From Proteromonas lacertae (Eukaryota), in assembly GCA_002245135.1 (NCBI GenBank), contig NGBS01000874.1:1-64000 (forward strand): DNA of 64,000 nt. Direction: 5' to 3'. The notes beneath the pieces are model-generated. The model was not told the origin of the DNA and searched no databases. It saw only the letters and a program-made list of their open reading frames with translations. The translations under genes were made by a program, and so were the position numbers. Every line of letters begins with the position of its first letter. The stretch's first letter is position 1. Shown piece by piece: positions 12,349-63,885 of the stretch.

Positions 12349-12412
12349 AAAATAATCATAATAATATCGATAACGCTATATTTCTTATAATTATGTTTTT
12401 GTTATTTTTGTT

Positions 12413-20892: not shown

Positions 20893-22248
<1,356 letters not shown>

Positions 22249-36895: not shown

Positions 36896-36976
36896 CTTTT
36901 AGCTATCTTCTATATATGCAAATTACATTTATAGTAATAAATAGCAAAAGTTTAAATAATTTGCTTAATAGTGTGA

Positions 36977-37957: not shown

Positions 37958-39149
37958 ATTTCCTTAATTAAAGATTTGCAATTTTAATAAAATGTAAAAA
38001 TTAACATAGTAGCATATAACCATATAACCATTATTAATGCTATCAAGAGATGGATTGCTATTACTATTACTTTCTCTATTATTTAGAGAATAAAGTGTAT
38101 TATAATTACTATTTATTACTTATGATGTGATTTTATTTAGTGTCTCAGATGGGATTATCTTCTTGACTTGTTCATTTAGATTAATTATCTTCTTTAATTG
38201 TTGTTGAAAGTTTTGTTGGTTTTCTATAATCCTTTTTTGACCCCTATTCCTCTTCTCTTTGTTATTAAAACTTCTAATGAATGATGATGATGAGAATAAA
38301 GATAAATTGTTCTCATCTATTGTGAATTCTTTACTTAAGTCTCTAAACCATAAGCTTTATAATACTAGAAGGATTTCATACTCAAGATCAAATATTAAAC
38401 ATTATCAACAATGCATTCAAAGAAATAACACTGAATAACTTTCATCCAGATACAGTATTAACAGATGATGATAAGAATATGAAGCTATTTATTGGAGATG
38501 TTGTGCGCCGTTGAGACGCTTTCATCATATAATTACTTTTAAAACAAACTAATATCATTTTTATCTTAGTTATAGAGAGTTATTTACAAATATATAGTTA
38601 GGTCTATGATATAACTTGTACTTATATCAACTATTAGATTAACATAAGTAATATTATTATATAATCCATTACTACTACTTATATGTATTGTTAATATAAA
38701 ATATCTGAAAATAAATCATAATGGTTCATGAGATAAATGAAAAAATAAAACTAAATTCCTTAAAAATTTTACACCTAAATTTTGTTCAAAATTTAATAAT
38801 CTCTACAAATAAATAATTCACTGTAAATTTAACTACTAAATTTAAATAATAAACTTCAGATCTATGTATAGAGATAAAAAAATTATACACAATACAAATT
38901 TATAAAGATAATTCACAAATATTTCTAGTTTCTATATTTAATTTATTACATATGAATATATTTCTAGAACAAAACATATGTATCTCATATACAAAGTATC
39001 ATCTTTATAATCCTTGTGCTTTATAATGAAAACAAATTCTTTTTAAATATTATTTAATTTTGTAATTTTTATTAATTAAAAAATGATATATAGCTAAAGG
39101 TGTAGTTTTAAGGGAAATGAATCTGATTAAAGTCTACATAAATCTGTGG

Positions 39150-40950
39150 AATGTATTATTTCTGTCATAATGGAGAAAACGCTTTGCTTTTTGTTCTGTT
39201 GTCAATCTAGACATAGCATCTTTTATATCATGAATAAAGTATTGAATATTGAAGCTTGTCGCGCGCGATAAAGAAATTTGCGCGATAAAGGAAGTAATTG
39301 TTTATATTTAGATCTAATATAATATTATTGTTAATGTCATTACGCTATGCATGAATATATAATCATTTTGTCTTATAACAGTCATATACAATAGTTATGT
39401 TCAATTATTCATAAATATTCACTTCATATTCATCTTAATTATTTCTATCATTTAACATTATTTTTTTTGCATATATCACTGGAAGAAATTGAAATAAACA
39501 GTTCTTTGATGAAAAGATTAAACAAAATCGATGTTACGATGGTTTGAAATAAAAAATAAAATATTGGCTTGAAGAAGGCTTGAGCATATTTTCTTTTTTC
39601 TTTAATATTTTTTTAAAGGGTACTATATATATATCAATATGTTAATAAGACATATATATTAATATATTCTAGCGATTTAAATAATAAAATAATTACAAAG
39701 ATTAATAATAGATGATATAAATCTTATTGAAAACTTGATGACAATTTCAACATATGTAATTTATTAGACAAAATAATGTTATATTTATATTTACTCGGCC
39801 TTCCAAATAAGTATTAACATATTCACTTTAATGGAAACTTATTACTTCCTTTACCGCGCAAATTTCTTTATCGCGCGAGACAAAGCTTTCAATATTTTGA
39901 ATGCTATCTTTGTTAATGTTCTTTAGTCTAGCGCCAAAAAAGAATAATGTATAATATCCACATGTAATTACATCTCTTTCATTTTGTTTTACTGCTGTTT
40001 TAATAATATGATATTCTTCTTCATAATATGATCTAAAAGAATATGCTATTCTAGTACTTATTGCATCTCTAGAATTTTCATCTTTTTCATATATTGAAAG
40101 GCTGTCTTATATATTGTAGATAATTCGATCATTATCTTTATAATCTACTTCCCAAAAAGTCCAGTGTTTGTATGCTCTATCACAAACAGGAAAGTAATAT
40201 ACTCCATCTTCACTAATCTTTACATAAGCTATTGTAGAAAAAGTATCTGCCTTATATATGTTACCTGGATCGATTATGCAATGATTGAATTGGTTTATAA
40301 AATGTATGAGATAAACCATTTGTTCTCCTTTTAACAGATGTTGATCATCAAATTCGTAACTTAATTCGTCAAATTTCCTTGCATAACATTTCCTTCGATT
40401 TGGTTTACGTGATATAACATCATAATCATAATCATTCATTATCATATCTAAGAATCTTAAGCAAGTATGTGGTTTTTCATCATATGCAACTAATGGATCA
40501 TTTGACTTTGTAATGTTTACATAATAACAAGCATACTTTAATCTACAAGATTACATAAGTTTTGATTAAATCACTCATTAATATAATATCAAGTTCATCT
40601 ACATGTGTTTGAATATTCGCATTTATTATCATGAACATCACTATAGCAATTATATCTTCTGCTTCCTGAAAGTTTGTTTTAATTTGATTTTTTATAAGTG
40701 TGAACTTATTTATCTTTGCTAGTGTCTTATCATACATGATTAAACGTTGTATATCTTCTTCATAAATACCACTATCAATTGTATCATAAACTGTAACTGT
40801 CTACTTTAATAATAAAAGTGTTCATCTTTTTAGTGGCTAAAATATTTAAATCTGTTGCTATAAACAAATCTTCACATGAGTAACATTCTAATATGAACCT
40901 CATTTCATTTAATTCAAGTTTAATTCTTCCAATGCTCTCTCTAATACTTC
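39150..40950 (-). pseudogene. Tandem Ulp1-like (C48) protease region of element 1, degenerate and MITE-interrupted
   Basis: YYFPVCDRAYKHWTFWEVDY, VITCGYY and DIILMSDLIKTY align with 56575..57927. Boundaries approximate. Confidence 0.75.
39257..39882. mobile_element. MITE (TGT...ACA, TIR of about 42 bp)
   Basis: TGTCGCGCGCGATAAAGAAATTTGCGCG TIR, 5 bp TSD AAGCT. The flanks rejoin to the Ulp1 sequence. Confidence 0.9.
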
Positions 40951-41000
40951 ATTATATTCATCATCACTATCACTGCCATCTCTGCCATAATCATCATCAT

Positions 41001-41640
41001 TGTTGTGCGCCGTTTGTCATAGTTGGCCGTTTGTCTACCAGACACTTTTAAAACAAACTAAATGTATATTCTTACTTGTCTTGATGAAAAATCGTTACTT
41101 TTATTACTTACTTTGTTATATGACCTATATCTGCAGTATACTTTTTTGATAATATAAATAGTTTGAATATTTGCGCCATTTGTTTTCTAGAAATTTTTGA
41201 AGCAAACTAAATACATATTTAGCTAATATAGACTAAAATACATTAGTTGAAATGATTAGAACAACTTAATGTTGATCATAAGACATATAAAAAGAAAAAA
41301 GAAAATATAGAATCAAGCCTCACTCAAGCCTATTTTTTACATTTCTTTTTTTATATAGAAAGATGTAATAATTATTATATTCTAATCATTTTAGCTAATG
41401 TATTTTAGTCTATATTTGCTTAAAATGCATATAGTTTGCTTCAAAAATTTCTAGAAAACAAATGGCGCAAATATTCAAACTATTTATATTATCAAAAAAG
41501 TATACTGCAGAGGTAGGTCATATAACAAAGTAAGTAATAAAAGTAACGATTTTTCATCAAGACAAGTAAGAATATACATTTAGTTTGTTTTAAAAGTGTC
41601 TGGTAGACAAACGGCCAACTATGACAAACGGATCACAACA
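41001..41640. mobile_element. Ginger-family MITE with TIRs of about 260 bp
   Basis: TGTTGTGCGCCGTTTGTC...CACAACA, 5 bp TSD ATCAT. Termini nearly match element 2. Confidence 0.92.
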
Positions 41641-41759
41641 ATCATCTTCTTCTAATTCTTCTTTGTTATCTTTACTTTCATTGTCATAATCCTCTTCATC
41701 ACCATCATCTTCACTTTCATTCTGATGAATATGTTTCGTTTGACATATCAACTTGCAAC

Positions 41760-42726
41760 TCTTTATTCTCTTTCATTAACTCTTGAATATCCATCAGAAA
41801 TAATGATCGTGGCTTGCAATGAGTTCTTCTACATATACCAGTATTAATTCTCTCAATAATTCTGTCTATATAATCTGTCCAATACACTTCTTTTTCTTTT
41901 GTTTCATTAAAACTATTCTTTTCTTTCTATACTTTCTTTTGATCTATTTTTGGCTTTGGATACATAAATTTTCTCATTGTAATTCTCAACCTTACCAATT
42001 GTCTGTGGACGATAAGGAGCGCTGTGAATTTCTTTAATATGATACATCTTAAATAATTGTTTAATAACATCATTGACAAACTCCAATCCATTATCCATTT
42101 GCATAATCTTTGGAGGTCCAAATATTCTAATATAATTTGCCACATTTCTTGTAGTTTCCTTTTCTGACTTTGTTTTCTGTGCATAAACCATGGTAAAATT
42201 ACTGTAATGATCAATGATGGTGAGGATATAATGGTATAAGTCCTCTTTTTTCATATTTTTGAAGTCTTTGTTGAATTGATTCATGTTAATTAAATCCAAA
42301 AGTATTCTTTCTCGAGGCAGATTAGAAATAATTGGCTTAACTGGTTGTCCATTTACCACCTTTTTCGTCTCTTGACAACCTATACAAGTGTCAGTATAAG
42401 CCCGCAACATGTCTCTGACTATACCATAGTAATCCTTTTGAAGCAAGGGTAACATATACCTATCATTAGCATGAGCATAATTAAGATGAACAGGTTAAAT
42501 TTGATCGAACGACTCCTCAATTGTAACTACCTTCTTGTTTTTGAAGTACAAAATACCATCCTTTATGGAGTACTTCTTTCTTTTATAGTTACCAATGTTG
42601 CTTAAGTAAAGATCTACTTTCTCCTTTGTGAATGTTCTTGTGCTTTTCTTCGCTATGTTCATAGCATTAATTCTTTCTAAGTAAACGATTTTATAATTAT
42701 AGTCCAAAGTTTTTCTAAGTCTTAGC
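41760..42726 (-). pseudogene. rve DDE integrase/transposase (SCAND3/KRBA2-Ginger2 type), exon 2
   Basis: H-H-CxxC zinc knuckle (VHLNYAH...CIGC), PIISNLPRERILLDLINM, QMDNGLEF, HSAPYRPQTIGKVE. One in-frame stop at 42495 and a 3' frameshift. Confidence 0.9.
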
Positions 42727-45700
42727 CTATAAAAAAGATAGTATAAATGTTATGTGAGTAATGAATATAGATATATAGATAATTACTGTTGTTTATAATA
42801 CTCTTACCCCCAAAAAACAAAAGAAAGAATGTTTATTTATATATTTTAAATCTTAAATAATTAAATCTAAGATTTAAGATATAAGTGTAACAATTGACTC
42901 CTATTATTATCGAATCTAAGATAATAATTCATATATAATTCTACTAATAATTCTTTCCCTTGTTTCTTCGTTGTATTGTCATTACTTTTTAATTAACCAG
43001 CCATCATTAATAGAAATTTTAAAACTGTTCAACCAAAATCATAATGACATTATCAACTACATCAGTTGAATAGTAATCAATTCCATATATTCATAAACAT
43101 ATATAAATGTACCAGTAAAAATTATACCAAGCAAACTCTGTTTCATTTAATGTAACTTCTTTTATTGTATATATTATCTCAGTATAAACTAATAATCTCT
43201 TTTCATTTAATTTATATGTTTGAATTTGAATTTATATAATTCATCTATGGAAATTTCTTCATTCGGAATTCCGCGATAATTGGAGATAATCAATGAGCCA
43301 TTACATTACCATAATTTAATCTATCTTTCCAATATATTTCAAAACATTAATCTCAAAGCATCAGCTTGTTTCTAAATTGCCATTACTATTGTTCTTCAAA
43401 TTACTTCATTGATTTTTCACTTTTCTTCTTATCTACATATTCATTGGTCAAGTTGATCTTTCTTCTACTACGCTACTTGTTCTGTTAATATTATAATATT
43501 ATAATCTATTAGTTGCATTAAGATTTCTTCTTCTTCTATATTGTATATCATATTTAATACAATATAACTCAATTGGATCTTTGCTTATATTCATTATTAC
43601 TAATGGTTATTCAACTGGTTCTAAATGAGATTGTATTGGATCAAATTGAATAACCATTAGAATAAGTATATTTATATCACCAATTTGTGAAGGTGTAAAT
43701 TCTATTTCTGCATTAAACCTTTCACATCATATATTCTGATCTGAGAAGCACCTTATCTTTCAGCTTTTTCTTTCTTAAAACTCCAATCAACAGTTACAGG
43801 ACATTCATTGTATAATGTCACAAACATCACTTGGTATTATTGATAATCGAAGAATACATACATCAGCTCTTAATATTATACAATAAGTTGGTACTCCTTG
43901 TACTTTGATTGGAATTGCTAAATCATATCTTCCATAAGGTAAATCAGATTTCGCTGTAAAACTAGATGTAAATGTCACTGTTGAACTTTTTTGTAATCTT
44001 TTCACTTCATCTGGAGTTAATGTATATCTACACTCTTATAAAGTTCTTCTTTCTATTCCGAAATTCACTGGTAAATTACCTATATTCGTTATTGTAAATG
44101 TCTTTGTCTTACTATCAGTTCGAACTACATTACCAAAATCTACTACATAATCAGCTAATGGAAACTCACCTAAATGTAAATTAGATATTTTCTTATTCGC
44201 CATTTTTGTTGTTTTGACTGTTTCATCTAATAATAAATCGATATAATATAATTTTAAAGCTTCAGATTCTCAATCAACTGTGATTTGTAATGATGCTGTA
44301 TTATTTCGTGAAGGTAATTTATTTATATTTGTCATGATTTTAGGTGGAGATGGTTATTTATTATCATTTTGTTGTGAATTCTTACTTCTCTCAAATACTG
44401 ATTTTTGACTATCTACTCTTGCAGATGATAGTTTCTTATTTTCATATTTTCTTTTCCTTCTTCTGTTATTTAAGTTGCTTATTCTCCTTCTAGTTTTGAT
44501 TCTGGTGGTAATTCTTTTACTGTTGCTTTACCAAGTGTTGGTGAATTGACTGGAATTCCATCTACAGTTATTGGCTTTTTAGCTTCAACTGGTTTTTCTT
44601 TTTCTTCTTCTGCTAATGGTTGTTCTGGTTTTTGTGTTTCTCCTCTTTCTGTTGGTTGTTTGATTGGTGATGGTAATGCTGGGTATGATAATGGATATTC
44701 AGTATTGGATGATACGATCAATCTATCAGCTTCTTCTAAGTAATGTTCCCAACTATTTGGTATTACCAATTCAGCATCATTCACTTTAATTTCTCTATTA
44801 CTTAATCTAAAACACCAACTAAACCAGTTCGAGAAGCACTATCAGTTGACATTTTAAATGGAAAATCTATTATATACATGAGGTATTTCTGAATATCTCA
44901 ATTCAATTTTTTCAGATTCAACTAGTTGTAAAATACATAGAATTTGGGTTATATCATATACTTCATTGATTGGAGATATTTGATTTTAGGTTTCATCTAT
45001 TTATAATTCCCAATGATAAGGACAAGGAATTGTTCCACGAGTTTCAATTGATAATAATAAAGATCTTTCAGTACTATTTAATATACAACCAAAATCCAAA
45101 TCATTCTAAGATAACCATAAAATGGGAAAGGCTACATCAGCTAAACATGGAATTGAATCTTTCTGAGGATAATCTTTATCTTATATTCAAAATACCATTT
45201 ATTTTAAAGGATATTTTATCATCTTTATAATTTGGATCAAATGCCACTGTCACATTCATTGATTCATTTGATTCTAAATGGAATTCATTCATACTTAATA
45301 ATAATGGAGCTGCTATACTTATTATCACATCTAAACTCAACGTTGATATATTCTTAAATACATCTGTCTTACTTTAAACTTCACCTGAAACTATAGCTTC
45401 ATATACATATTAAAATATGATTTATAAATTACACTTTGACTTCTGTTTTTATTGCTTCGTTATTTCTTATTTCTCTATCTATTAATTTATAAGAAAAATT
45501 GATTAATGCTTCATTTGTAAGTGATACTTCATATCGATGTGTTGAATACATAAATATATCACCAATATCTAATATATCATAACTAAAATAAGATTTTGGA
45601 CCAACACCTGAACCTGTTATTAACAATGGAAATCGATCTAATCTATTTTCTAATTCACGATTATTTCAAATCTCACTATCTTACTAGATTTCACCTTCAT

Positions 45701-46043
45701 TTAATTGATTCATTTTTATCTTCAAATGCTAAACAATCACGATCTACTTGGGAATATAATATTTTATATTTTTACCAACTAAATGGGCCGATTTAGATTA
45801 ATCAGTTAATAGTTCTAAATCTATTGTGGGGTTGTTTATACTGTTGTTTAAATTACTTTCTCAAACAGATGGTAATATTTGAACTTGAGGTTAGTTTAAA
45901 TTTTCTTATTTCATCTTCAGTTTATAATGCTTTCCATATAAAATGGCATTTTTTATCTAATAATTAAAAATACTAATTCAACTCATCTGTTAGTAAATAA
46001 AAAAAAAATATAATATAATAAAAAATATATATATAGAACTTAC
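42727..46043 (-). other. Predicted 3317 nt GT-AG intron splitting the transposase ATG
   Basis: Donor AAAAT|GTAAGT at 46043 (conserved at 62350). Branch-like TACTCAC and a poly-T TATAG|G acceptor at 42727. The join gives ATG CTA AGA CTT in frame with the integrase. Confidence 0.65.
43000..45950 (-). pseudogene. HYDIN: Captured Hydin fragments (deleted mosaic) in element 1
   Basis: GVGPKSYFSYDILDIGDIFMYSTHRYEV and YVVDFGNVV are ASH-domain segments homologous to 58.5-62.2 kb. Boundaries approximate. Confidence 0.8.
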
Positions 46044-46509
46044 ATTTTAGAAATTAAAACCATCAGGTTTGATAAGCTTGATTTTTATTTTCGTATTATC
46101 TTCCTTTGTAGATATAATTTGATTGTAATCTTTTAAATTTCTATTGAAATTCGTTTTTTCTATTTGACTAAACCATAAAAATATACAAACTGAAAAGTTG
46201 AAGAAAATAGAAATTTAAATTAAAAAATGACGTCAGAATGGGTATAATTCTTAATTCCTGTGTAACTGACACTTCTTATTTAGACATTATCTATCATCAT
46301 AAACACAAGATTTGGAATATACACAATTTTTAAAATATATTAATGTAAGTTTTAGTCAATATTATAACATAATTTTGTTACTCAAATAAGTAGCTAATAT
46401 GACAAACTAACTATATATTTGTAAATAACTCTCTATAACTAAGATAAAAATGATATTAGTTTGTTTCCAAAGTAATTGTATGATGAGAGCGGCTCAACGG
46501 CGCACAACA

Positions 46510-47094
46510 AGGCATATTCAGATTACTTCCATCTATATATTTTTGAAGATGATTGAAATTCCAATAAATATCTTTAGTCATTACAGAAAAGAGGAGACTG
46601 TCAGTATCTGTCATTAAGAGTCTAACATATTTTGGTGAATTGTAATGTAATACTCCATCATACCGATATTTATACATTAATAATTTAGAAAGAGCAAATA
46701 TTGTCATACCTATCTGAATAGGTTTATTAATTTTGAACATCTTTTTATGATAATGCACTAATCTTAAATCTCCATGAATAGTATGTATCTTATCAAACCA
46801 AGGATCTCTAATAGCTTTTCTTGACTGATTTTCTGACACTACTAATTTGATACTTCTCCTCTTATCAACTCTTTCTAAAGTTTTTCCATAAAGTGAATTA
46901 AGTAATTTCTTCTTGTATATCTGACAATTCATCATAGCTAATCTTCCTTCTTGAAGGTAGAATAGGATATTCTCTTATAATAGGAAATAGGTTCTATATC
47001 CACTTCTAACATATATCCTGTAGTTTCAAAGGAATCATTCTTATCATAGAATTTAGTAGATTCTGATATTTCATAAAGTTTAGGACAACTAGGA
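46510..47094 (-). pseudogene. pPolB fragment (second lineage), truncated by the Ginger TIR
   Basis: KKLLNSLYGK, KPIQIGMTIFALSKLLMY and LLMTDTDSL motifs. Confidence 0.9.
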
Positions 47095-47888
47095 TGATCC
47101 AAATTATAAAGATGATAAAATATCCTTTAAAATAAATGGTATTTTGAATATAAGATAAAGATTATCCTCAGAAAGATTCAATTCCATGTTTAGCTGATGT
47201 AGCCTTTCCCATTTTATGGTTATCTTAGAATGATTTGGATTTTGGTTGTATATTAAATAGTACTGAAAGATCTTTATTATTATCAATTGAAACTCGTGGA
47301 ACAATTCCTTGTCCTTATCATTGGGAATTATAAATAGATGAAACCTAAAATCAAATATCTCCAATCAATGAAGTATATGATATAACCCAAATTCTATGTA
47401 TTTTACAACTAGTTGAATCTGAAAAAATTGAATTGAGATATTCAGAAATACCTCATGTATATAATAGATTTTCCATTTAAAATGTCAACTGATAGTGCTT
47501 CTCGAACTGGTTTAGTTGGTGTTTTAGATTAAGTAATAGAGAAATTAAAGTGAATGATGCTGAATTGGTAATACCAAATAGTTGGGAACATTACTTAGAA
47601 GAAGCTGATAGATTGATCGTATCATCCAATACTGAATATCCATTATCATACCCAGCATTACCATCACCAATCAAACAACCAACAGAAAGAGGAGAAACAC
47701 AAAAACCAGAACAACCATTAGCAGAAGAAGAAAAAGAAAAACCAGTTGAAGCTAAAAAGCCAATAACTGTAGATGGAATTCCAGTCAATTCACCAACACT
47801 TGGTAAAGCAACAGTAAAAGAATTACCACCAGAATCAAAACTAGAAGGAGAATAAGCAACTTAAACAACAGAAGAAGGAAAAGAAAAT
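47095..47888 (+). repeat. Inverted near-identical copy of 44446..45239 (Hydin cargo piece)
   Basis: ORFs 47104.. and 47550.. are identical to 44970.. and 44479... Confidence 0.95.
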
Positions 47889-48372
47889 GATGAAAGTTAA
47901 TTGCTCAGAAATAACATATATAAGTCACTATTATGATATTAAAGTATTAGAAATTGAAGTTATTCAAAGATGCTATAACATATCATTTAATGAAAGAATT
48001 AGCAAAGGAATTAAAAGAAGAAATCATTGTGGTCATTTATGGTATTGATCATATGATTTATTACTTTTTATCTGTAAATTCTTTTCTTTTTATATTAATT
48101 TGTTATATTTTATTTATTCTACATGATATAAATCATGTTCCAAATAATTATCTTTGCAAAAGAATAAGAAATAAATATAAAACATTTTCAAACACTATTC
48201 ATTATTCACCTCACTCAAGATGTGGAATTACTAATCATTTTTTGGATTTATTTCAAGCTCTTTTGTTATCTTTAGTAATTAAAAGAAAAATAGATTGTAT
48301 ATTTATTATACTATTGAGGTAGTTAGTTTGTGGAAGTATATGCTTGATTATTTCTCTTTGTGTAATATAAAC

Positions 48373-49914
48373 AGTGTTGTATTTTTCGGTCAAAAAATAT
48401 AGGTTTACCTATAGGTCAAAACCTATATCTTTAGCTTGACCTTTACCTTACTTATACTAACTATTAGTTGACCTCCTATTGAACATGAGTTAAGAAGCAT
48501 ATAATCTAACCATATATACAAAATTAATGTTTTATACATCATCTTTCAAATATCAAATTTGACAGTCGGTCGATGCACATTTTATATTACTATTATTTTG
48601 ATCTATTTCTCAATGATGACTCACAATAACATATTATTAACATAATATTAAATTAATTATAGAATAAAAAAAATAAAAGAAAAAAACATCAAGCTTGATG
48701 GTTTGACAAAGTTAATCTTTATTTTTTAAGATTTAGATCATTTAAATGTATAATTACTCAATATTTATAAGACTTTATAATATATGAAACTATAGGGATA
48801 TCACATTACCCCTATCGCATCAAAAGAGTTGTGATTTTATTCAATTGTTGTATGTTAGAGAAGTAACATTTTAACTACTTCAAAATGTTTTGGAAAACGT
48901 GATTAAAATAAAATATTCAGATTATTACATATGGTAAAAGCCAAAGTCAATTCAGATTCTGTCAACAAAGATCTATTTAAATTAATAACCTTCAATGCAG
49001 TCAGTACCACAATATTAGACTCACCAGAATTTAGAAGGTTTTGCTTCAAATTAGGATATATTATACCTCTAAGAGAGTTTTATAATGCTTATTTATTTTC
49101 AGAAACTGAGAAAGTAAGAGACTTATTGAAGACAAATTATTAATATCCAGAAATAGAGATTTATTATTATAATTACATTAATATTTGTTTTTTAGAGATA
49201 GTAAGATATATAGTATATAAATGGGACTCTGGGACATTGTCACAGAGTTCTAACGAGTGTTCTAGGAGTCCGTCCCTTTCTAGATTCAGAGTTGACTTTT
49301 ACGGGGCCTTCATCGATTGCATCGATGAAGCTCCCGTAAAGGTCAACTCTGAATATAGAAGGGGACGGACTCCTAGAACACTCGTTAGAACTCTGTGACA
49401 ATGTCCCAGAGTCCCATTTACGTAAGGTTCCTACGGGATTCCTCCCAACAGGGTCTACTTCTCAACGGGGTCTACTTCCCTACGGGAACTCCTCTAAGCT
49501 ATTTCTATATCTATCTATACCTACCAATACCTTCCTATACCTACCAATACCTTCCTATACCTACCTATACCTATCTATGAGACGATCTCCTACGGGTACT
49601 CCTGGAAGCTGAGTTCGGCAACGGGACGTCCTTTTGTGTTTTGTCCCGTCCCTTGTCCTTTTCATACACTAAAACTTCTCGTTGATTACACATGTCCTCT
49701 TTGTCCCGGGACGTGTAGTTTAACACGTCCTTTTTTGTCCTATATTTTTGAGTTTAAGTTTCTGTTTTTTCAATAAAAATATTCTGCAATAGCATTAAAT
49801 AAGCTTAATATTAAGTATTACATACTATACTCAAGTCATTTTTGTATATCCTAAATAATATCTTTTGAAAATCCATTTAAGCCATATTTGCTATATCTAT
49901 GAATAATATTTAAC
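48373..49914 (+). repeat. Inverted duplicate of about 30987..32522 (TGTTG end, hairpin TIR, hAT end)
   Basis: Identical 70 aa ORF, hairpin, and hAT junction CCTGGAAG|CTGAG. Confidence 0.92.
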
Positions 49915-51974
49915 CTATATATACCACTTAGATAACTCTGTATAGTTTAATGAAGTATATCCCCATTTACAAACACTCATCGCACAACAGAACTTCACAT
50001 GATACATGCTTATCATTACACTATTATCTACTATAACATATGCTTGAATTAAATACGAATAAAAAGTAGAAAAAAAGAAAAAATGTTTGATTAACTCGAG
50101 TTCTTGCATTTTGAATGCCATCTCATAATAGGTTTAGAGATAATATCTATAGATTATATAACATTAATAATTGCATAGAAAGACCTGGCGAGAAGAATAA
50201 AAGGATTGAATGCAAAAAGTGCAAAATGTTTATCATCAAGCATGCTACTCAGTTAAAAAGACATGCAAGACAGTATTTTAGATTATTATTATAATTTATA
50301 GTTGCACAAGCGTAGCAGTTCAGTCAACAATTGATATGAGTGATCATAGCAAAGACAAGGAGATTGTTGAATTAATAATAGAAAACAATCTCCCTTTAAG
50401 CGTAGTTGAATCCAAATCGTTCAAAAGCTTGTTCAAAAATTATGCTGTGCCATCAGCTAAAAAAGTAAAAAAAATAATTGAAACAGAATCGAAGAAAATG
50501 TTAAATGAGTGTATAGATAGAAGAAAAAAACTAACAATAATATTGGATGAATGGGAAAATATACTTGGAAATAGCATCATAAACATAGCAGTTAAACAAA
50601 ATCAAAGAATTGTATTTGTTGAAAGTGTATTACAAAAAAAGGTACAAACAACAAGAAATATTGTAGATCTTATTTCTGATATCTTAGAAAGAAATAATTT
50701 GGATATGAATAACATTTCTGCAGTAGTAACTGACAACAATCCAACTATGAAACATATTGGTGAAGTTATTCAACAAAGAACAAGCAATACAATTATTACA
50801 TTTGGTTGCCTTGCTCATGTTGTAAATTTAATTACCAAAAAAATAATGGAAATTGATAAGTATAATGATATTCTTCAGTATTGCAATGACATGATTCATA
50901 AACTAAAAACCAATACACGAGTAAGACAATTTATATTCAACAAATATCAGGAAGTTCCGCAGATCAGAAAAGGATGTCCAACTAGATGGACATCCTTTTC
51001 AAAAATGTTTAGCAAAATTATTAAACACAAAGATATTTCAATTGATGCTAAGTTATTAGATGAAAGTCGTTGCGAAGAAATAAGTGAAATAATGAAAATT
51101 ACCAACAAGCTATCAGCATATGTGCAAGAATTAAGCAGAGATAGCACTACTTTAAGCGATGCATACTGTATCATTAAATCAATGAAGAGATATTTGAAGT
51201 CATGCGAAAATGATAATATAAAGAATATAATTACCAAACAATTGGAATTATCGAATTTGGATATATTATTGATAAGTCAATATTTAAATGTAAACTATAA
51301 ATTCAAACATGGAGATAAAAATGATTACTCAAAGAGATTCATTATAGATAATTTCTCTGATATTTGTGACAGAAATTTGGTTGCAGAAATATACTTTTTT
51401 GAAAACAGAATGCCATACAATGGTTCACCTTCTTCCATTTTTCGCGAAAGTATTTCAACCGATATATGGTTTGCAACATATGACATATACTTTAGAAATT
51501 TAAAGAAAATTTATGATATTATATCAACAATACCATGTTCAAGCTCTTTTATTGAGAGAATTTTCTCCATCGAAAGCGTAATACATTCATACAGGAGAAA
51601 CAGATTAAACTTAGATACTATTAATAACATTATGAGATTAAAGTATGAATTAGTTGAGAGAAATAAGAGAGAATAAGAACAAAATGTAGAAAGTGATGAA
51701 GATGAAAATAGAGAAATTACTAATGTGGAAGATATAAGTGAAGAAGATGATGAGCAAAGTGAAGAATGTAGTCCAGATTATTAATGTTATTATTAATTAT
51801 CTTTATTCTTACTAATAAATGTTTTAATAAAATAAAAAATCACATAATTTATTTATATAACAAAAAGGTAATATCAAATATTTACAAAAAGGACAAATTA
51901 CTGTCCTTTATCGTACTCTTGTCCCGGACATGTCCCGGACATGTCCTTTTTGTCCCTGTCCCCGCCGAACTCAG
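49609..51974 (+). mobile_element. Full-length hAT transposon (flanks do not match)
   Basis: CTGAGTTCGGC...GCCGAACTCAG termini and an intact transposase. Confidence 0.92.
50115..51676 (+). CDS. hAT transposase, 510 aa, exons 50115..50272 and 50302..51676
   Basis: A 29 nt intron adds a BED finger (CKKC...LKRHARHC). Also LDEW, VTDN, CLAH, TRW and ERIFS motifs. Confidence 0.9.
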
Positions 51975-52237: not shown

Positions 52238-52307
52238 GTAATAATTCTTTATTATTGACTTCTATTTTTATTTTTTGATTTCTCACTACATAATATATAC
52301 ACACACA

Positions 52308-53069
52308 ATGTTTAAATTTGAAAAAATAAATAATATACAAATTGAACCTGTTGATGGTGGTGAGTCATTTGATCCTAAGAAAATTCTGGGATATGATTAC
52401 TTTAATGAGCCTTTCTGCAATATATTTATTGTGGCTCGTAAGAATAGTGGTAAAACAACTTTGATATACAATATATTAAAACATATTATAGATCCAAAAT
52501 ATAAGAAAAAACAACATGTACATTTTTTCGTAGGTACAATCAAACAAGATAGGATATATGATTCAATTAAAGAGTTGTTAGATTATAATGAAATTAGTTA
52601 TGATGAAAATGATTCATTATTTGAACCTTATTCAGGAGATAATTTAGTAGAGAAGTTAATGAAATCAATTGATGATACAAACAAAGATAATTTTGAGTAT
52701 GCAGAACATATTATAATATTTGATGATCTTAGTTTAGAGCTGAAAACAGCTAATATCATACCAGTATTAATGAAAGAAAATAGACATTTAAAATCAAAAA
52801 TTATAATTAGTAGTCAATATATTACTGATATAGTACCTTCAGCAAGATCACAAGTAGATTATTGTTTAACATTTTATGGATTGAGTAACAGAAATTTGTT
52901 TGACTTATACAACTCATTGAATATATGGATACCTGAATATGAAACATTTAAAGAGTTATATTTAGCTGTTACTAAGCCACAATATAACTTCTTATATATT
53001 GATAATGTTAAAAAAGTGTTTAGAGCTAACTTCAATATTTTGATTGAAGATCATTCTGAAGTTTCTTGA
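52308..53069 (+). CDS. A32-like packaging ATPase of virus B (intact)
   Basis: ARKNSGKTT, IIIFDD, RHLK and SSQY motifs. Confidence 0.9.
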   Translation: MFKFEKINNIQIEPVDGGESFDPKKILGYDYFNEPFCNIFIVARKNSGKTTLIYNILKHIIDPKYKKKQHVHFFVGTIKQDRIYDSIKELLDYNEISYDENDSLFEPYSGDNLVEKLMKSIDDTNKDNFEYAEHIIIFDDLSLELKTANIIPVLMKENRHLKSKIIISSQYITDIVPSARSQVDYCLTFYGLSNRNLFDLYNSLNIWIPEYETFKELYLAVTKPQYNFLYIDNVKKVFRANFNILIEDHSEVS

Positions 53070-54554: not shown

Positions 54555-56311
54555 AACTGTTTCTTTCTTCTGTTTATAACAACAGTTTCTTGTCAGAATT
54601 TCGATTTAGTAAAAAATATAGAATATTGCAGATAATTCTTTAAATATATATTTTTGACACTATTTAAATTCTTTTGAATGTTTTTAACTACATTATATAA
54701 ATCCATAAATAATTTGATAAATGAAAAAATAACATAAAAAAGTAAGAACGCATTCTGTAGCTTGGCCACCACACTATTTAATCACTAAGTCCTAGTCAGG
54801 CTACACAGGACACGCTACTTACTTACATAGAAATACATTTCTTATTAAATAAAGTAGCTACCCTGCCGGGGTAGAACAGGTAGCTACCTATCTATTTATA
54901 CACTTTATTTCTACTATCCTACGCTAAAAACTATTAAAAACATAAAAATAAAATTTGACCCCATAAATTTATTCACACACTAAAATATATAAAGAAATTT
55001 AAATTCACCGCTTGCTCCAGTATAACCGTACCAAAAACTAATTCACACTCAAATCGCTTATTCTTACCTGTAGAAGGCACCTAAGAATAGTCTGGTACGG
55101 TTTACCCACATACAGTGATATTCTTACGGTTATACATTTATTCATCTCCATTTCTTTTACACAATTCGTAATAAAATACATCTGTTACAAATAATTGAAA
55201 ATTTTATTCAAGCTTCAGTTTGAAAATTCCATTTATTTTCAAGTTTATTAGGTTATATCTTATGGATATCAATATAATTTTGTATATTATAAATGTATTT
55301 TTACAGTAGGAATAGAATGGGCTCCAATTAATTCTACTTCAAGGTGGATTTTAAGAAAAGTGGTTGTGGAATTGCTATCTATGATAATTTTACTAATTTG
55401 TTTTTTAATATATCTAAGTAGTTTGATGGTATATTTTATTTATATATAAATAGTGTTTGCAATAAATAAAGAGAAATTAGTGGAAGTAAAGAATATATAC
55501 CTATGAAAGCAATGTGTTAGAATGAATGACAAATCAGATATTAAAAATTATAGCGTAAAAGTAAGAAATCCATGTTTAGGACAATATTATCAACCATATT
55601 TTTCCAAAACCTGAAGTAAATCATTCCAAATTCTTAGCTTGTCTCAATGACTGGTAGTTTTATAGATGTGTTGTGCGCCGTTTGTCAGAGTTGGCCGTTT
55701 GTATACCAGACACTTTCAAAACAAACTAAATACATAATTACACTTCTTTTAATGAAAAATTGTTACTTTTATTTTAACATTTTGTATATGATAGACATGT
55801 CACGATATGACTTAATTAGCCTATGTAACAAAAATTTTTACATAATCTATTAATACATATTAAGTACATGAATAATATAAAATATTATCTTACAACTCAC
55901 TTCTGTTGTTGATATAAATAAAAAAATGTAACTAAAAACTTGAATTTTCTTACCCCCTTATTTGTACGAAAATTAATATTTTGATATAAAAACTTGTTTT
56001 ATATGCACATGTTTTTCATCAAAATCTATAATTTTAGATATAAAGTTAATATCTACAATATTAACAGAAATACAATCTTTAATCGACATGAATCTCAAAG
56101 CTACAACATATTAATGTATTTCATATTTCAGTGCCTTCAATAAAAATCATTCATTTCAGCGTGTAGCCAATTACAATATATTTTTAACACTTAGCTTCTT
56201 TTGTATAATTTACAAAATTATAATTTATGGGTTGTTTTTGTTTTATATAATAGTATCAATGATTATGAAATGATACACATAAGTTACAGAAGAAAATTGA
56301 GAAGTGAAAAA

Positions 56312-56369
56312 TGTCTCCTAGACAAACGGCGTATTTCTAAATCTTCTCACGCCGTTTGTCTAGGAGACA
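56312..56369. other. Perfect 20 bp stem hairpin built from the TIR motif
   Basis: TGTCTCCTAGACAAACGGCG-N18-CGCCGTTTGTCTAGGAGACA. Confidence 0.85.
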
Positions 56370-56574
56370 CTTTTGATTTCTCATATTTCATATATGAGAT
56401 AATCATAATATATTATTAACAAATATAACAAAATTGAAATCAGAAAATAAGTTGAAACAACATTCAACTCAAATCTTTTTCCAAAATTGGTTTTATGTTA
56501 TGTGGATGTGTGTACCTAACAAACACATTGTAATTATATAAAAATACTTTGTAGAATTTTTAAAGAAAATGAAA

Positions 56575-57927
56575 TTATTTAAATCTATAAATGTTTTTTT
56601 TGTTGTAAATGTAAAACAATTTTGCTTTTTCTTCGTTATTTAAACTTTCTATACCTTCAATTAAATCATCAATGAAGTATTCTATATTAAAACTTTCTAT
56701 ATTTTGAATCTTTGTTATTTCCAAATTATTCAATCTTGCTCCAAGAAAGAATAAACAGTAATATCCACAAGTTACAGCATCTGTTTGATAAACTTTTGTA
56801 TCTACTATTTCATATGATTCTAATTCACGATTGCAAGAATGAAAGAGTTGTTTAATATTCTTTATTACTATATTTCTTGGTTCTTTGTTCATATAAATTG
56901 CTAAACTGTCATATATTCTAAACATCATATAGTCATTAGGAACATAATCTACTTCCCATAAACTCCAATGACTTTGATTTGGATCACATACTGGAAAATA
57001 ATAAATTCCTTTTTCACTTATCTTTTTTTTATTATCCTTTTGCTTTTCATTTAAAAATTCAACATCAGGATCAATATCATTCTTATTGTTGTTGGAAATA
57101 TAATGTAATAAAAACAGGAATTTATCGCCTTTTAGTTGATTGTTAATATTTAAATGACTCACCAATTCTTTACAATTTACTTCATATTTCGGTTGTTGAT
57201 GTTGTCCATAGAATCTTACATGACCAATATCATTATATCCTTTAATTTTCTTTACAAACAACAAACTATCATGAGTGTGATCATCATATGTAATTGATGC
57301 AACACTAGTATCTTTTCTATTTACCATTTAACATGCATATTTTAAAGTCATTGAATTACGCTCTATCAGAAGGTGTATATAGGTTTTGAATAGATCAATC
57401 ATGAGAATAATATCAACATCGCTTATATATGGATGATCTTCAGACATCTTTATCATTAGCATTACAGCAGCCAATATTTCTGTTGCTTCAGGAAAGTTAG
57501 TATTAACATTGGTCTTGACAATCTTATATTGAGATATTATTTCACCTACACTTCTATCATATCTACCATTACGACGAATACCTTGTGCATAATCATCTTT
57601 ACCAAATGAATCTATAACTTCGATAGTTTTATTATCATGATGAATGATAACAGTGTAATAATTGTTACTATCTTTAGCTCTAATTATGAATGCTTCCATC
57701 TCTTTATTCATTATCATTTGTTTATTTTTACATACGTAATAATGTTGATTTAAATTGTATAATTCCAATATGAAATGAATTTCATTTAATCCAAGTTGTA
57801 TTTTTCCAATACTTTTTATAAATCTTTCAACAAATTCCAACTGATCATTAGTTAATGGATCCTTAATATCTTCTTCAGAAGTTCTAATGCCAAATATATC
57901 ATACACTGCATTCTTCTTTGGATTCAT
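56575..57927 (-). pseudogene. Inactive-looking plus catalytic Ulp1-like (C48) protease domains, one reading frame with a nonsense codon at 57328
   Basis: Catalytic SHW, YDSL and QTDAVTCG motifs. Element 1 has Tyr (LKYACYYVN) where this copy has TAA. Confidence 0.85.
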
Positions 57928-58504
57928 TACTATTTGCTGAAGTCTTTTTTCATAGGTGTTAATATCCTTTTTCTTAGGATTAGGATGAATCTATTTAATA
58001 TAAATTATCATCAAATATACTAGTATTTTGTCTGTTGTTTTCTTCATATTCTCTAATAATTCTGATGAAACTTCAAACTTTATTAAAGGTGTAGATGATA
58101 CTAATGGAATTTGCATGTTTTCATTTCTATTCATTAGATAGTAATAATTTAATAATATACACTAAATATTGCTTTTTATTAACTTTATCATCTTTAACTA
58201 ATGCTAGACTCTTTTCATCTTGGCACATCTTTCTTTTCACAGCTGTAATAACCACATCTCCATGTTCTGGATTAACTAGTTTATTTCCTAATTTCTTAAT
58301 GGAATCATCTCTCATTTTGTTATTATAATTGAAGTTTCTTTAGTCTATATAATCTTGAAACTGTTCTATTATATTTCCATTTTGTATTATATCTTTTTTG
58401 ATTCTATCTTTATAATCTTCTTCTTCCATTATTGTTACTTCACCATTACCGCTATTACCACCATCATCACTATTATCGCTATCATTACCATCTTCATCTT
58501 AAAG

Positions 58505-61500
58505 TTATTCTTTCTATTCCGAAATTCACTGGTAAATTACCTATGTTAGTTATTGTAAATGTCTTCATCTTACTATCAGTTCGAACTACATTACCAAAAT
58601 CTACTACATAATCAGCTAATGGAAACTCACCTAAATGTAAATTAGATATTTTCTTATTCGCCATTTTTGTTGTTTTGCCTGTTTTATTACTGATATTTGT
58701 TAAACCAGTTTCAGGTGTTTTTGTGGTTTTATCAACTACTCCTTCACTTTTTGAACCATTTATTGATGTTCCATTTAATTCTTTCTCTTTTCGAGCTACA
58801 CATAAATCAATAGGATTTTGATTGTTTATTTCATCTAATAATTAATCAATATAATATAATCTTAATGCTTCAAATTCTCTATCAACTGTGATTTGTAATC
58901 CTGTTGTATTCTTTCCTGAAGGTAATTTGTTCGTATTTGTCATCATTTTAAGTGGAGATGGTATTTTATTATCATTCTGTTGTGAATTCTTACTTCTGAC
59001 AGAAACTGATTTTTGACTATTTACTCTTGCAGAATACTGTTTTTTGTTTTCATCTTTTTCTTTTTCTTTACATTTTTCTTCTTCTGCATTTGTATTTGCT
59101 ATTGTTGGTTCTTCACTATGTGGTGCTAATTCTCCTTCTAGTTTTGGTTCTGGTGGTAATTCTTTTAAACATGTGTTGGTGAATTAACTGGAACTCCATC
59201 TACAATTATTGGCTTTTCAGCTTCAACTGGTTTTTCTTTTTCTTCTTCTGTTGATGGTTGTTCTGGCTGTTGTTGTTGTCTTGCTTCTTCTCCTTCAGTA
59301 TTTATAATAGTGTTATTATTACTTTCATCTATTGAAGATTCCACTACTTCAGGTAAAGATGGTTGTTGTTTGATTGGTGATGGTAAAGCTGGAATGATAA
59401 TGGATGTTCTGTATTGGATAATTCAATCAATCTATCAGCTTCTTCCAAGTAATGTTCCCAATTATTTGGTATTACCAATTCAGCATCATTCACTTTGATA
59501 TTTGCATAAATACCTGTTATATAAAGTAGAAAATCTATTGGAACATAATGAGCTATTTCTATTACTAATTTCTCTATTACTGAATCTGGAATTCCTACTC
59601 TCATTTTAACAGAGATTCTTTGTTGATCATGAGATGGAATTAATCCATTACATGGTGAAACACCAACTAAACCAGGTCGAGATACACTATCAGTTGAGAT
59701 TTTAAATGGAAAATCTACTGAACCTGTATTAAATATATGAAAATCTCTTTCTTCTACTTTCATATAAGGAATTCTACCAAAATCAATATTTTGTTTATCC
59801 AATCTATAAGATAAGACTGAACTTTCACCTTTCATTTTGATGTTATAAACTGGTCCTCCATCTACATAACATTTACCCAATGCTCTTGATAATACATGTG
59901 GTATTCCTGAATATCTCAATTCCATTTCTTCACATTCACCTAGTTGTAAAATACCTTGAATTGGAGTTATTTCAAATACTTCATTGATTGGAGATGTTTG
60001 ATTTTCAGTTTCATCAATTTCTAATTCCCAATGATAAGGACAAGGAATTGTTCGACGATTTTCAGTTCAAAATCAAAATCATTTTGAGATAACCATAAAT
60101 TGGGAAAGGCAACATCAGCTACACATGGAATTGAATCTTTCTGAGGATGATCTTCATATCTTATATTCAATATTCCATTTATTTTACTAGAGATTTTATC
60201 ATCTTTATAATTTGGATCAAATTCCACTGTCACATTAGTTGATTCATTTGGTTCTAAATGGAATTCATTCATACTCAATAATAATGGAGCTGCTACACTT
60301 ATTATCGCATCTAAACTCAATGTTGATATATTCTTAAATACAACTGTCTTACTTTGAACTTCGATTTTCTCTTCAGAACATTGAATTAATGGATTCATAA
60401 AGTTCACTTTTACTTCGGTTTCTTTTGCTTCATTATTTCTTATTTCTCCATCAAATTTCCTCAAACAAGAAAACATTTTCATCACTTCACAGGGTTTTTC
60501 ACAGCTTCCAGATGTTACAAAATTTCAAGCAGTATTGGGTTTTAATTCGATTGCATTGGGAGTTATTGTAAATATAGCTTCATAAGGTTTGAATTCATTT
60601 CACTTTCCATCTTTGATTTATTGGCTTTAAAAGATTTTTCTTTTTCTACTGCTGTTTGATTTATCCAAGTTAATCTTTGACTTCTTAAACCTCGGTTTTC
60701 TAATAAAAAAATACTCTTTCGATTGTTCTGTTTGTGAATTGATCACCAAAATCAATTACATCTACTGGATCTTCTCAAAATATTGTTGTTATTATACATT
60801 TAGCTGTAACTGGAAGAATTGCACTATCTCCTTCAGTTGCTGCTATGTATATTGTATCTTTATAAGCTAATACATCTTCCAACATGCAACTAACTACTAT
60901 CTTTTGAGATTCTTTACTTTGTAATATACCATCAACTCTATCAGTATTAAAATAAAATCCTCGTTCAAAATCTAATTTATAAAAAGCTGGAATTGAAGTT
61001 GGATTAGTTATTGTAAATTCTTTTGTATGAGTATCTAAACAAGTTATATCACCAAATTTTATATGATTTAAATTTGACTTTATCACTGGTCCAAGTCCAT
61101 TTGCTTCTAATACTAATACCAATGGAGGATATTGACTGCCACGTATTTGAATATATAATGGAATTCTCATATCACCTAATTTCTCAGGATTTAATAAAAC
61201 TTTAATCATTTGAGTTGCCATTGGTCCAATTACGCCTTTAACTGGATCAGGGAAATAACTACCAATCGATTTACTTCTTTCATCTTGTTCTGTTTTCAAA
61301 TTGAGCACTTAAATTGGATTTATTCTTTAATGTTAAAGTTCGATAATAAGTATATCTTAAATAACAATCTCCATATTTCAATGATTCTTCTAATAATTCT
61401 ACTTCAGCTACTCGACATTCAGCACTTATTGGAATTGTTAATAAAGCTTCACCTACACTTTCAATATCAATTGCTAAACAATAATCATATACTTTTATTG

Positions 61501-62210
61501 TTTGAGATATGAAATTGATTTTGATTTTCTTTTCTCCTTCTGGTAATACTGTTGCTACTGCTTGAACTATTTCGAATTCTTTGTTTAAGTAATTACCATC
61601 TTGAGGAACTCGTAAATTGAATATAAATGGAACAGAGGAAGTATTTCTTAATATCAAATCAGTTGAGTTAAAAACACATAACTTACAATACCAAAATCTA
61701 GTTTATTCTTATTAAAGAAGAATGTTGGACCAACTACATGTCCTTTTATTGTTAATACCACATTATTAGTTGCTCCTTTTAATGCAAATTCAAAATGATC
61801 ACTAAATTCACCAAGAGTTGAACTTGTATAAGATACTTCGATTGTTACACTTTCTTCTATATCTAATTCACCTTGGTGGAGTAAATATTACATTTGGTTT
61901 AATTGATCCTTCATTGGTAAGTGATACTTCAACCAATATCTAATGATAAATAAGCAGGATCCATTGATATTATTTGAGTGCTTCAACCAATATCTAAATC
62001 TTGAGCTTGAGCTTTTTTTCTTCTAATTAATACATTTTTTCTCCTAAAGTCTAAATCAACACTATTCTGCTGTATATTTGATATATTATTTTTTCTACTC
62101 TATAATTGGGCCTAGTTAATCTTTGACTTCTTAAACCTCGATTTTCTATTAAAATGCGCTTTCAGCTTATCTGTTAATAAATTTACCACCAAAATCAATT
62201 ACATCTACTT
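58505..62210 (-). pseudogene. HYDIN: Captured Hydin fragments in element 2
   Basis: LRNTSSVPFIFNLRVPQDG, IKFGDITCLDTH, GILNIRYEDHPQKD and GGPVYNIKMKGE are repeated ASH domains characteristic of Hydin. Confidence 0.85.
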
Positions 62211-62309
62211 TATGTTCATAAAATAATGATGCTTCTATACCTTTCGCTGTACATGATAGTATTATACAGTTTATAAATAATATAAAGTAAGTATTTTGAT
62301 AATAATAAT

Positions 62310-62348
<39 letters not shown>

Positions 62349-62836
62349 ACATTTTGATTTTCTTAAATAAAAAAAAAAACTGTCAAGTTTGACAAGCTTG
62401 ATTTTTCTTTTTTGAAATATCTTCATATCTTGATATAATATTTTAACATTCTTCAAAGTTTCTACTGAAATTCATTTTTTCTCTTTGACTGAATCAAAAA
62501 AACATACAAACAAAAAAGTTGAAGAAAATGAAATTTTAAATTAAAAATGACGTCAGAAGGGGTACAATTCTTAATTCCTGTTTAACTGACACTTCTTATT
62601 TAGACATTATATGTCAATAAAAACATAAAATTTGGAATATACATAATTTCTAGAATATATTTTGATAGTTTTTATTCAATATTATGACAATTAATAGTTA
62701 CTCATAGATGTAGGTTATATGACAAAGTAAGTATAAAAGTAACAATTTTTCATTAAAAGAAGTGTAATTGTGTATTTAGTTTGTTTTGAAAGTGTCTGGT
62801 AGACAAACGGCCAACTCTGACAAACGGCGCACAACA

Positions 62837-63246
62837 TCTATTATAATACAAATGATATAACTAGAATTGCATTCAATCCTATAAGAAAATCAGCAAAATC
62901 AGAATCTATTAGAGATGCAAGATTAATTATAAATTATAGTAATAAAATTATGGAATCCTTTAATACTAGAACTATATATCAAAAAGACAAATTCATACAT
63001 TCATTTGGAAACATGAACATTAAATTAAATCCAATTAGAAACGAATTCGATTTAGTTGGAGATAGTATAGATGGATATTTAACAGGTTTTACAGGATATT
63101 TTGGAGGTGATATAAGAAAAAATTATAATGGTGTTGAATTAGATAGTTCTTTTTTTTTTATAGGTTTTGGTGATATGGATTCAGTAGTAGCAAGTATTTA
63201 TCCTGATAATATTGTATATAATATTATATTTCAATTGATAATTTAA
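62837..63246 (+). pseudogene. 3' part of an unknown gene truncated by the TIR
   Basis: The frame is open from near the TIR junction into ORF 62950..63246. Confidence 0.35.
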
Positions 63247-63585: not shown

Positions 63586-63885
63586 TTAACCATAAAACAT
63601 CTGTAATATACATAAACATAATTCGACCTTTTTTACAGTTTCATAAGGTTTGAAGTGTCGAATTATCGGGTTATGACTGTACTTCTTTTCATCAGTGTTA
63701 TACTTTGATCCATAATATATCAATGCATATTGATTTTTCATCTTTTCTAATACTTTTGCTTCATTTAATACTTTTTCTGTTGATTTTTTATTGACTATTA
63801 GCTCTTTTCTCGCAACATTTATCCCATTCATTTTTATTAAATGCACTTTCCCATAACCACCATTTCCAATTGTTCTTAATGCCAT
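63586..63885 (-). pseudogene. Protein kinase N-lobe fragment
   Basis: IGNGGYGKV Gly loop, VARK and alphaC Glu; no catalytic loop. Confidence 0.7.

Follow-up and report, generated by a model that had tools for sequence, protein, structure and literature searches.

The locus and its two elements

We examined 64,000 nucleotides of the Proteromonas lacertae genome (assembly GCA_002245135.1, contig NGBS01000874.1, positions 1 to 64,000; hereafter 'the window'), in which two diverged transposons, E1 and E2, each hold coding DNA of the gene Hydin between matched terminal inverted repeats (TIRs; Table 1). Hydin is a central-pair protein of motile cilia. The initial annotation had proposed a pair of TGTTG-ended elements, and both are real: each is read on the minus strand, TGTTG stands at all four ends, and the TIR arms are 95% complementary in either element (103 nt each in E1, 113 nt each in E2). 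Their outer flanks are unlike each other, which bears out the annotation's exclusion of an ordinary segmental duplication. Its reading of the integrase as present only in E1 and deleted in E2 also stands (rve, E = 7e-12).

Table 1 Features of E1, E2 and related sequences in the window
Feature	Position	Strand
E2, Ginger-like TIR transposon carrying Hydin; non-autonomous, with its integrase deleted	55669..62836	-
E2 5' TIR, 113 nt, begins TGTTG	62724..62836	-
E2 5' subterminal region or likely non-coding first exon ending AT, 84% identical to E1	62351..62723	-
E2 Hydin scrap of greater age, aa ~846-895; identity to main copy at 60640-60815 about 76%	62085..62262	-
E2 Hydin pieces, aa ~254-295 and ~450-470; a short repeated motif marks the deletion junction between them	61899..62060	-
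E2 main Hydin cargo, intron-free, collinear with Achlya Hydin aa 494-1596	58500..61875	-
E2 transposase acidic linker and GDVV segment (likely SH3-like), adjoins cargo directly	58161..58498	-
E2 predicted 34-nt intron, GTATAT...AG; removal restores frame	58127..58160	-
E2 predicted 30-nt intron, GTATAT...AG	57991..58020	-
E2 putative protease-like domain (weak resemblance), no catalytic His or Cys, likely inactive	57331..57990	-
E2 Ulp1-type (CE-clan) protease domain, H-D-Q-C pattern, conserved in E1	56578..57327	-
E2 internal palindrome with two TIR core motif copies	56292..56389	.
E2 3' TIR	55669..55781	+
E1, a decayed copy from a second subfamily, with TIRs at 46407-46509 and 38499-38601	38499..46509	-
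E1 Hydin cargo (about 2.5 kb), aa ~309-1827 with large deletions	43501..45972	-
E1 integrase, H2C2 and DDE; one stop and one frameshift in core	41738..42726	-
MITE with E2-type TIRs inside E1 acidic linker; 5-bp TSD in GAT repeat	41001..41640	.
E1 protease region; aligned blocks are 61% identical to E2 in nucleotides	39149..40939	-
Second MITE, TGT...ACA, inside E1 Ulp1 domain; 5-bp TSD	39257..39882	.
TIR-less inverted duplicate of E1 cargo 44440-45239, 99.75%	47095..47895	+
MITE, miniature inverted-repeat transposable element; TSD, target-site duplication.

The cargo is Hydin

All five E2 open reading frames (ORFs) searched against PDB had Hydin as their top match (E = 1e-38, 2e-31, 3e-25, 4e-14 and 4e-5), with the other ASH-domain proteins FAP81, FAP47, FAP65 and FAP74 at E = 2e-4 or worse; we assigned the cargo to Hydin as an orthologue on this collinear best match, which stands above other ASH-domain proteins. 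A cargo search of 1.84 billion representatives returned 586 matches at E<=0.001. Identity to the cargo was at most 46% in the best 150 of these 586, and the named organisms in the top 10 were the stramenopiles Achlya (first), Aureococcus and Triparma, together with Percolomonas.

Mapped onto Achlya Hydin (4606 aa), the main E2 cargo (about 3.4 kb) has seven frame changes and three stops in 1092 codons. The E1 cargo has ten stops in 656 codons, begins about 70-95 nt past a splice donor at 46043, and covers aa ~309-479, 1009-1190, scraps, 1550-1723 and 1776-1827, the outermost matches being weak and in order. Reading through E1 at 45481-45990 and 42799-43827 gave no Hydin match in PDB, and a custom Hydin profile applied to E1 picked up aa 309-384 and 1726-1827, weakly and in collinear order, and nothing convincing beyond 43501. 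The roughly 770 bp between the last Hydin match and the E1 integrase (42727-43500, minus strand) lie outside all assignments made; they may be decayed Hydin running into the adenylate-kinase-like region, followed by an intron. Intron-sized insertions were absent from six of six anchor intervals in E2 61872-59488 (excess +2 to -67 nt). The annotation's picture of sense-oriented, overlapping pieces with differing internal deletions and no tiny introns thus agrees with the collinear Achlya mapping and the intron-free E2 intervals. With the E2 scrap, the E1 cargo and the E2 main copy, the Hydin DNA shows three degrees of decay.

The annotation had also reasoned that Hydin fragments lying mostly outside these TIRs would speak against a transposon cargo. 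One TIR-less piece of 801 bp does occur in the window (47095-47895), but it is a duplicate of the E1 cargo. A word-based search for Hydin among proteins of 421-2000 aa found none, a weak negative given that full Hydin is longer, and queries for related loci with the integrase, Hydin and P0025 (the intact relative described below) found none.

The transposon vehicle

The E1 integrase, whose H2C2 finger scored below the cut-off, starts at a candidate acceptor AG ending at 42727. A homology search with it recovered a group of nine Logan proteins and a single further match at 25% identity. The nine are 97-100% alike and 93% identical to the E1 integrase; in seven the integrase-linker frame is complete, and the other two are shorter. 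Judged from their sequences, these near-identical intact proteins point to a young E1-type subfamily. Their representative, P0025, has H74/H79/C108/C111, D138, D205, E241, an acidic linker and the GDVV segment. Identity of the E2 linker to this intact E1-type transposase is just 48%, from the cargo junction at 58498 onward.

Without its two predicted introns, the linker and protease region of E2 forms one 619-codon frame with two stops; the choice of these introns was post hoc, because the region offers 12 GT..AG candidates. Introns of exactly 30 bp are typical of related human Blastocystis subtypes. Where the annotation saw two Ulp1-like domains, the second bears the H-D-Q-C pattern and the first is a weak look-alike with neither His nor Cys. 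The second matched ChlaDub2 or XopD, which we take to be CE-clan proteases, in six of six PDB matches (weak, best E = 0.011), although Pfam C48 did not match the ORFs of the protease region and a single-sequence fold was not usable (pLDDT 35). Look-alikes of the first carry C48/C57, with recognition below threshold, and it showed no similarity to the protease domain that follows it.

The flanks of elements and MITEs are AT-rich, and CCGG or CCGT was found at none. The E2 TIR pattern had 0 matches in viral_contigs and metagenome_contigs. A third TGTTG-ended family, whose TIR continues differently, occurs twice, as inverted 1.75-kb copies (98%; at 32528 and 48367).

Cargo and backbone differ in divergence

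Between E1 and E2, synonymous divergence (dS) is 0.13 in the cargo (95% confidence interval 0.09-0.19, 387 codons) and 1.27 in the protease region (0.89-2.07, 263 codons). This roughly tenfold difference indicates that the two cargos have a far more recent common source than the two backbones; since an unselected ancestral cargo should be no less diverged than synonymous sites of the protease, the 5' end and the cargo have likely moved between subfamilies. Identity is 84% in the 5' subterminal region and 66% in the 3' subterminal region, and the two cargos differ by 10% plus reciprocal deletions.

The ratio of nonsynonymous to synonymous divergence (dN/dS) between the cargo copies, a comparison suggested in the annotation, is 0.54 on a nucleotide-based alignment of 445 codons (dS 0.144, dN 0.078) and 0.63 on protein-selected blocks. 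Two neutral nulls, in which the same changes were scattered at random, had means of 1.07 and 0.90, and 0.54 lies below both (P = 0 of 1000 and 0.009). Stop codons are asymmetric, with 1 in E2 and 10 in E1 over the 445 shared codons (p=0.012) and 3/1092 against 10/656 over the whole cargos (p=0.007); in E2 their density is equal in cargo and backbone (2/587). When 40 mapped amino-acid differences were compared with a 40-sequence Hydin profile, E2 was better at 24, E1 at 10, and 6 were ties (p=0.024). The dN/dS, stop and polarity measures share data. Asymmetric stops and a dN/dS below neutral should not arise in a passenger that was captured once and has decayed neutrally. The measures instead fit a path on which a long neutral branch leads to E1 and a short one to E2, with purifying selection acting in between; the host gene, between two rounds of copying, is the simplest candidate for this selected part. 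A cargo under selection in an active transposon lineage would give the same figures.

Position of the cargo at the 5' end

Directly before the cargo, both elements carry AAAAT followed by GTAAGT (at 46043 in E1 and 62350 in E2). Of eight GTRAG donors in E1, only the one at 46043 is preceded by AT, and joining it to the acceptor at 42727 yields a start codon in frame with the integrase. The cargo may therefore be intronic, with the start codon divided (AT^G) by that intron. The 5' exon that the annotation placed here is a putative one, predicted from the conserved GTAAGT donor in both elements. We also considered TACTAACAG at 45988 as the true acceptor; this is doubtful, as it may be decayed Hydin coding sequence.

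A likely history of capture, exchange and re-copying

We lean towards a history in which two diverged Ginger-like cut-and-paste subfamilies share a Hydin slot, and the cargo has moved by template switching and been re-copied from the host gene at least once. Repair of a broken element would have used the host Hydin locus or its cDNA as template, so that aa ~250-1830 came to lie directly after the first splice donor. Later, this 5' end with its cargo would have replaced the 5' half of an E2-type element, a step that would explain in one event both the integrase loss of E2 and the cargo abutting the linker. The resident cargo would then have given homology for further switches to the native gene, adding host substitutions (mostly synonymous), resetting stop codons and leaving deletions. 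Throughout, the cargo would be carried along as non-coding DNA that intact transposases mobilise in trans; a passenger is its most likely role, and it has likely been amplified to many copies. An mRNA origin is possible: the transposase gene has predicted introns of 30 and 34 nt and the cargo none. Microhomology-guided template switching is a model proposed for Pack-TIRs (Tan et al. 2021, PMC8277862; this and the papers cited below are used for the portions of their text available to us), and template switching followed by transposition, as in the models set out there (gap-filling and FoSTeST), is the likely mechanism here too.

Several observations weigh against this history. The dN/dS test weakens in subsets (P = 0.004 and 0.027 for Ig domains, 0.029 and 0.084 for the linker), and the excess of stops in E1 cargo over E1 backbone (10/656 against 4/699) is not significant (p=0.11). 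The E2 cargo is less pristine than its stop count suggests, because it has seven frame changes, whereas the 587-codon E2 backbone has none apart from the predicted introns; these frameshifts would speak against a pristine recent copy unless copying was error-prone. The case for re-copying comes from a comparison of two sequences, because the best 150 of 586 matches are no more than 46% identical. At the 5' end, divergence is 0.185 against 0.144 in the cargo, values that fit a selected cargo equally well, and a conserved promoter could inflate identity there. The intron position is contested by a nearer donor at 42807 and by a downstream Met that could serve as the start, and an intron of 3.3 kb is doubtful beside other predicted introns of 30-34 nt. 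TSDs of 2-10 bp were sought at the borders of E1 and E2 and none was found, which rearrangement after insertion likely explains. Finally, we infer rather than observe that the 140 Hydin-like proteins of P. lacertae considered below belong to TIR elements.

One alternative has a single capture and a single later swap with no refreshing from the host gene, the low dN/dS and the stop asymmetry being due to chance or to faster mutation in E1. It accounts for the dS mismatch with fewer events, the E2 range is largely nested in the E1 range, and the seven E2 frameshifts suggest some age. We nevertheless consider it unlikely: the dN/dS (P<=0.009), stop (p=0.012) and polarity (p=0.024) results point in the same direction, though sharing data, and the 76%-identical scrap inside E2 would be left without explanation.

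Selection could also have acted within the elements, on a cargo captured once and kept for its protein in an active lineage from which E1 and E2 are dead offshoots of different ages. The selected form could, for example, be an exon of a Hydin-transposase fusion or a separate truncated Hydin. The dN/dS of 0.54, the few stops in E2, the sense orientation behind a donor and the similar depth at which 5' region and cargo split all suit this account, and Ssk-FB4 is a precedent for a translated Pack-TIR (PMC8277862). It is nonetheless quite improbable: both copies are frameshifted and full of deletions, and the host gene is a simpler source of purifying selection. No intact cargo ORF appeared among the matches listed from the 1.84 billion representatives searched, though Logan does contain intact transposases of the family; this negative is weak, E1-type cargo lacking most of the query.

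The annotation itself had favoured a single capture before the subfamilies diverged, followed by vertical inheritance. Slot, orientation and overlapping range are indeed shared by both elements, and the 76% scrap implies that these elements already contained Hydin DNA before the cargos of E1 and E2 separated. In its simple form the proposal is refuted, the cargo (dS 0.13-0.14) being about ten times less diverged than protease synonymous sites (1.27), with non-overlapping intervals. It survives only with later homogenisation of the cargo by conversion, which is the history of exchange and re-copying renamed, and as a separate account we regard it as very unlikely.

That the Hydin DNA reflects segmental duplication or misassembly rather than transposon cargo is hardly credible. 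In favour of it, several near-identical inverted duplicates occur in the window, one of them copying E1 cargo outside the TIRs, and TSDs are missing at E1 and E2. Yet the TIRs match as a pair within each element, the flanks of the two are unlike, aligned blocks of the backbones show 61% identity, and the cargos are 10% apart with reciprocal deletions.

Relation to known transposons

We filed the family provisionally as Ginger-like without assigning it to a group, by motifs rather than phylogeny. Ginger elements (Bao et al. 2010, PMC2836005) have TGTNR termini and TIRs of 40-270 bp, which the TGTTG ends and 103-113-nt TIRs of E1 and E2 fit, and have a Gypsy-like integrase with an H2C2 finger and D-D(35)-E, found here in E1 and P0025, as well as transposase introns (predicted here). 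As expected of Ginger, neither reverse transcriptase nor RNase H families were found in the element ORFs scanned, and the ends are inverted, not direct. Ginger TSDs are 4-5 bp; the two nested MITEs have 5 bp, like TDD-4/5, and E1 and E2 have none.

Traits of both Ginger groups occur (PMC2836005). A C-terminal Ulp1 domain is a Ginger1 trait, shared here through the H-D-Q-C pattern with its weak PDB support, but a pattern search of P0025 found neither the YPYY nor the GPY/F motif of Ginger1, and the AT-rich flanks differ from the Ginger1 target CCGG/CCGT. Ginger2/Tdd fits in its H2C2 and DDE, the lack of YPYY and GPY/F, AT-rich sites and 5-bp MITE TSDs, whereas the Ginger2 table of the available text has no Ulp1. 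The probable second, inactive protease-like domain and the multi-kilobase host cargo go beyond Ginger as described in that text. IS3EU/GingerRoot, IS481EU and the Polinton integrase, which lack HHCC upstream of the core (PMC10045372), were excluded because HHCC is present here. Ginger elements are thus likely extended to stramenopiles, with a mix of Ginger1 and Ginger2 traits and an unusually large cargo.

With host gene sequence between matched TIRs, E1 and E2 are of Pack type. GingerRoot/IS3EU (Cerbin et al. 2019, PMC6839031) are also integrase-type TIR elements, with host fragments in 22 of 77 and capture often accompanied by transposase loss, as in E2; they differ in their TA..TA ends, 6-bp TSD and lack of HHCC (PMC10045372). 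Their fragments, of 84-1654 bp from ten genes, keep introns (PMC6839031), whereas the cargo here comes from one gene, reaches 3.8 kb, is intronless and is shared across subfamilies. Among Pack-TIRs the median capture is 224 bp and multicopy cases are rare, and the available portions of PMC8277862 mention neither Ginger nor repeated re-copying. In Pseudocercospora, a hAT family carries histone H3 (Dhillon et al. 2019, PMC6710886), a single conserved gene with hundreds of dead copies whose original survives; that case involves a small gene, hAT and inactivation by repeat-induced point mutation, and cross-subfamily exchange is not described in the available text. Captured fragments in Drosophila telomeric retrotransposons can direct small-RNA silencing onto the parent gene, a parallel to the decoy role that the annotation proposed, but the genes captured there belong to host transposon-silencing systems, which brings a selfish benefit (PMC13534243); the cargo here is Hydin. 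Capture of genes by TIR elements is therefore already known; what is unusual here is the size of the cargo, its likely high copy number, the exchange across subfamilies and the signs of re-copying. We found no description of a Hydin-carrying Ginger-like element in the available portions of the literature on Ginger/Ulp1, hydin capture and Proteromonas transposons, a scope that did not include the P. lacertae genome paper.

Hydin-like proteins in Proteromonas lacertae

In Table S5 of Lind et al. (PMC12129017), P. lacertae has 140 Hydin-like proteins, Cafeteria 1 and all 8 Blastocystis strains 0; the same table gives P. lacertae 172 viral-type polymerase B, 79 Ulp1, 54 rve, 47 hAT and 11 FUT8-type proteins. 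All six kinds are present in the window, which has a GC content of 28-30% (27.0% in P. lacertae). A Blastocystis host, under which the cargo would be the remnant of an organelle since lost, was rejected on the zero count in that genus and its GC content of 21-23% or 39-55%. The Hydin row is labelled 'transposon' in the supplement of PMC12129017, and 'hydin' is absent from its main text and preprint. The 140 are predicted proteins from an annotation made without RNA, and several may derive from a single element; dynein heavy chain, taken as an inflation control, stands at 85 against 24 in Table S5. E1 and E2 offer a structural explanation for this published, undescribed row, and are a warning that ciliary gene counts in the lineage can be inflated by cargo. 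If the cargo has been swapped and refreshed from its parent, the time of capture can no longer be read from how similar the two are.

A silencing or decoy role for the cargo through small RNAs is possible by analogy. If transcription ran through both, the duplicate at 47095-47895 and E1 could pair as a Hydin hairpin of 800 bp. We know of no silencing role for Hydin itself. P. lacertae has 6 Piwi, 2 RdRP and 8 RNase III proteins (PMC12129017 Table S5). As a speculative extension that we rate as rather improbable, the family may repeatedly resample one essential host gene, probably via mRNA, leaving about a hundred near-current Hydin fragments, such that silencing of the elements hits a flagellar gene held hostage, or the copies feed small RNAs. 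If so, a cilium gene would be under transposon-driven pressure in an organism closely related to Blastocystis, which has no flagellum.

The surrounding window

The window is rich in decayed mobile DNA, with large inverted duplicates and pieces of Polinton-like, hAT and other kinds. A Polinton-like block with a packaging ATPase and two capsid-like ORFs (by resemblance, with no family match) forms a 3.8-kb inverted duplicate (97.9%) at 1-3834 and 9308-13156, and more polymerase B and ATPase pieces lie at 5661-6140, 46459-47094 and 52245-53066. The left flank of E1 weakly resembles the window's minor-capsid-like ORF (E = 0.03), and E1 and E2 may both be inserted in Polinton DNA; that the E1 left flank and the E2 right flank are halves of one minor-capsid gene was not supported on comparison. 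The open frame from the flank of the E2 5' TIR (62837-63243, plus strand) had no family match.

A hAT element occupies 49609-51974, with a 464-codon transposase frame at 50282-51673 (DUF659 and hAT dimerisation), and deleted relatives lie at 4635-5649 and 30226-31390. A GC-richer element (about 40%) at 24000-30200 and 34600-36900, its ends related to 36474-36900, may at a guess be a DIRS-like retroelement; its 822-codon coiled-coil ORF and cysteine-rich 262-codon ORF had no convincing Pfam match. A 203-bp palindromic MITE is found at 31474-31676 and 49218-49420, and its arms recur at 23372-23467, 34628-34701 and 36719-36767.

Two host-like genes are intronless, a FUT8-type fucosyltransferase at 32601-33935 (plus strand), with 13 of 13 homologues found only in Logan (37-60%), and a 328-codon membrane-anchored ORF at 36980-37963 (minus strand) that had no Pfam match. 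At 63670-63885 (minus strand) lies the 5' end of a protein kinase (Pfam E = 2.5e-5), cut after about 70 codons by sequence that begins CAGT after TA, a start that we take to resemble a pogo/mariner end. A CAA repeat at 21170-21290 encodes about 40 glutamines within a 452-codon ORF (20890-22245).

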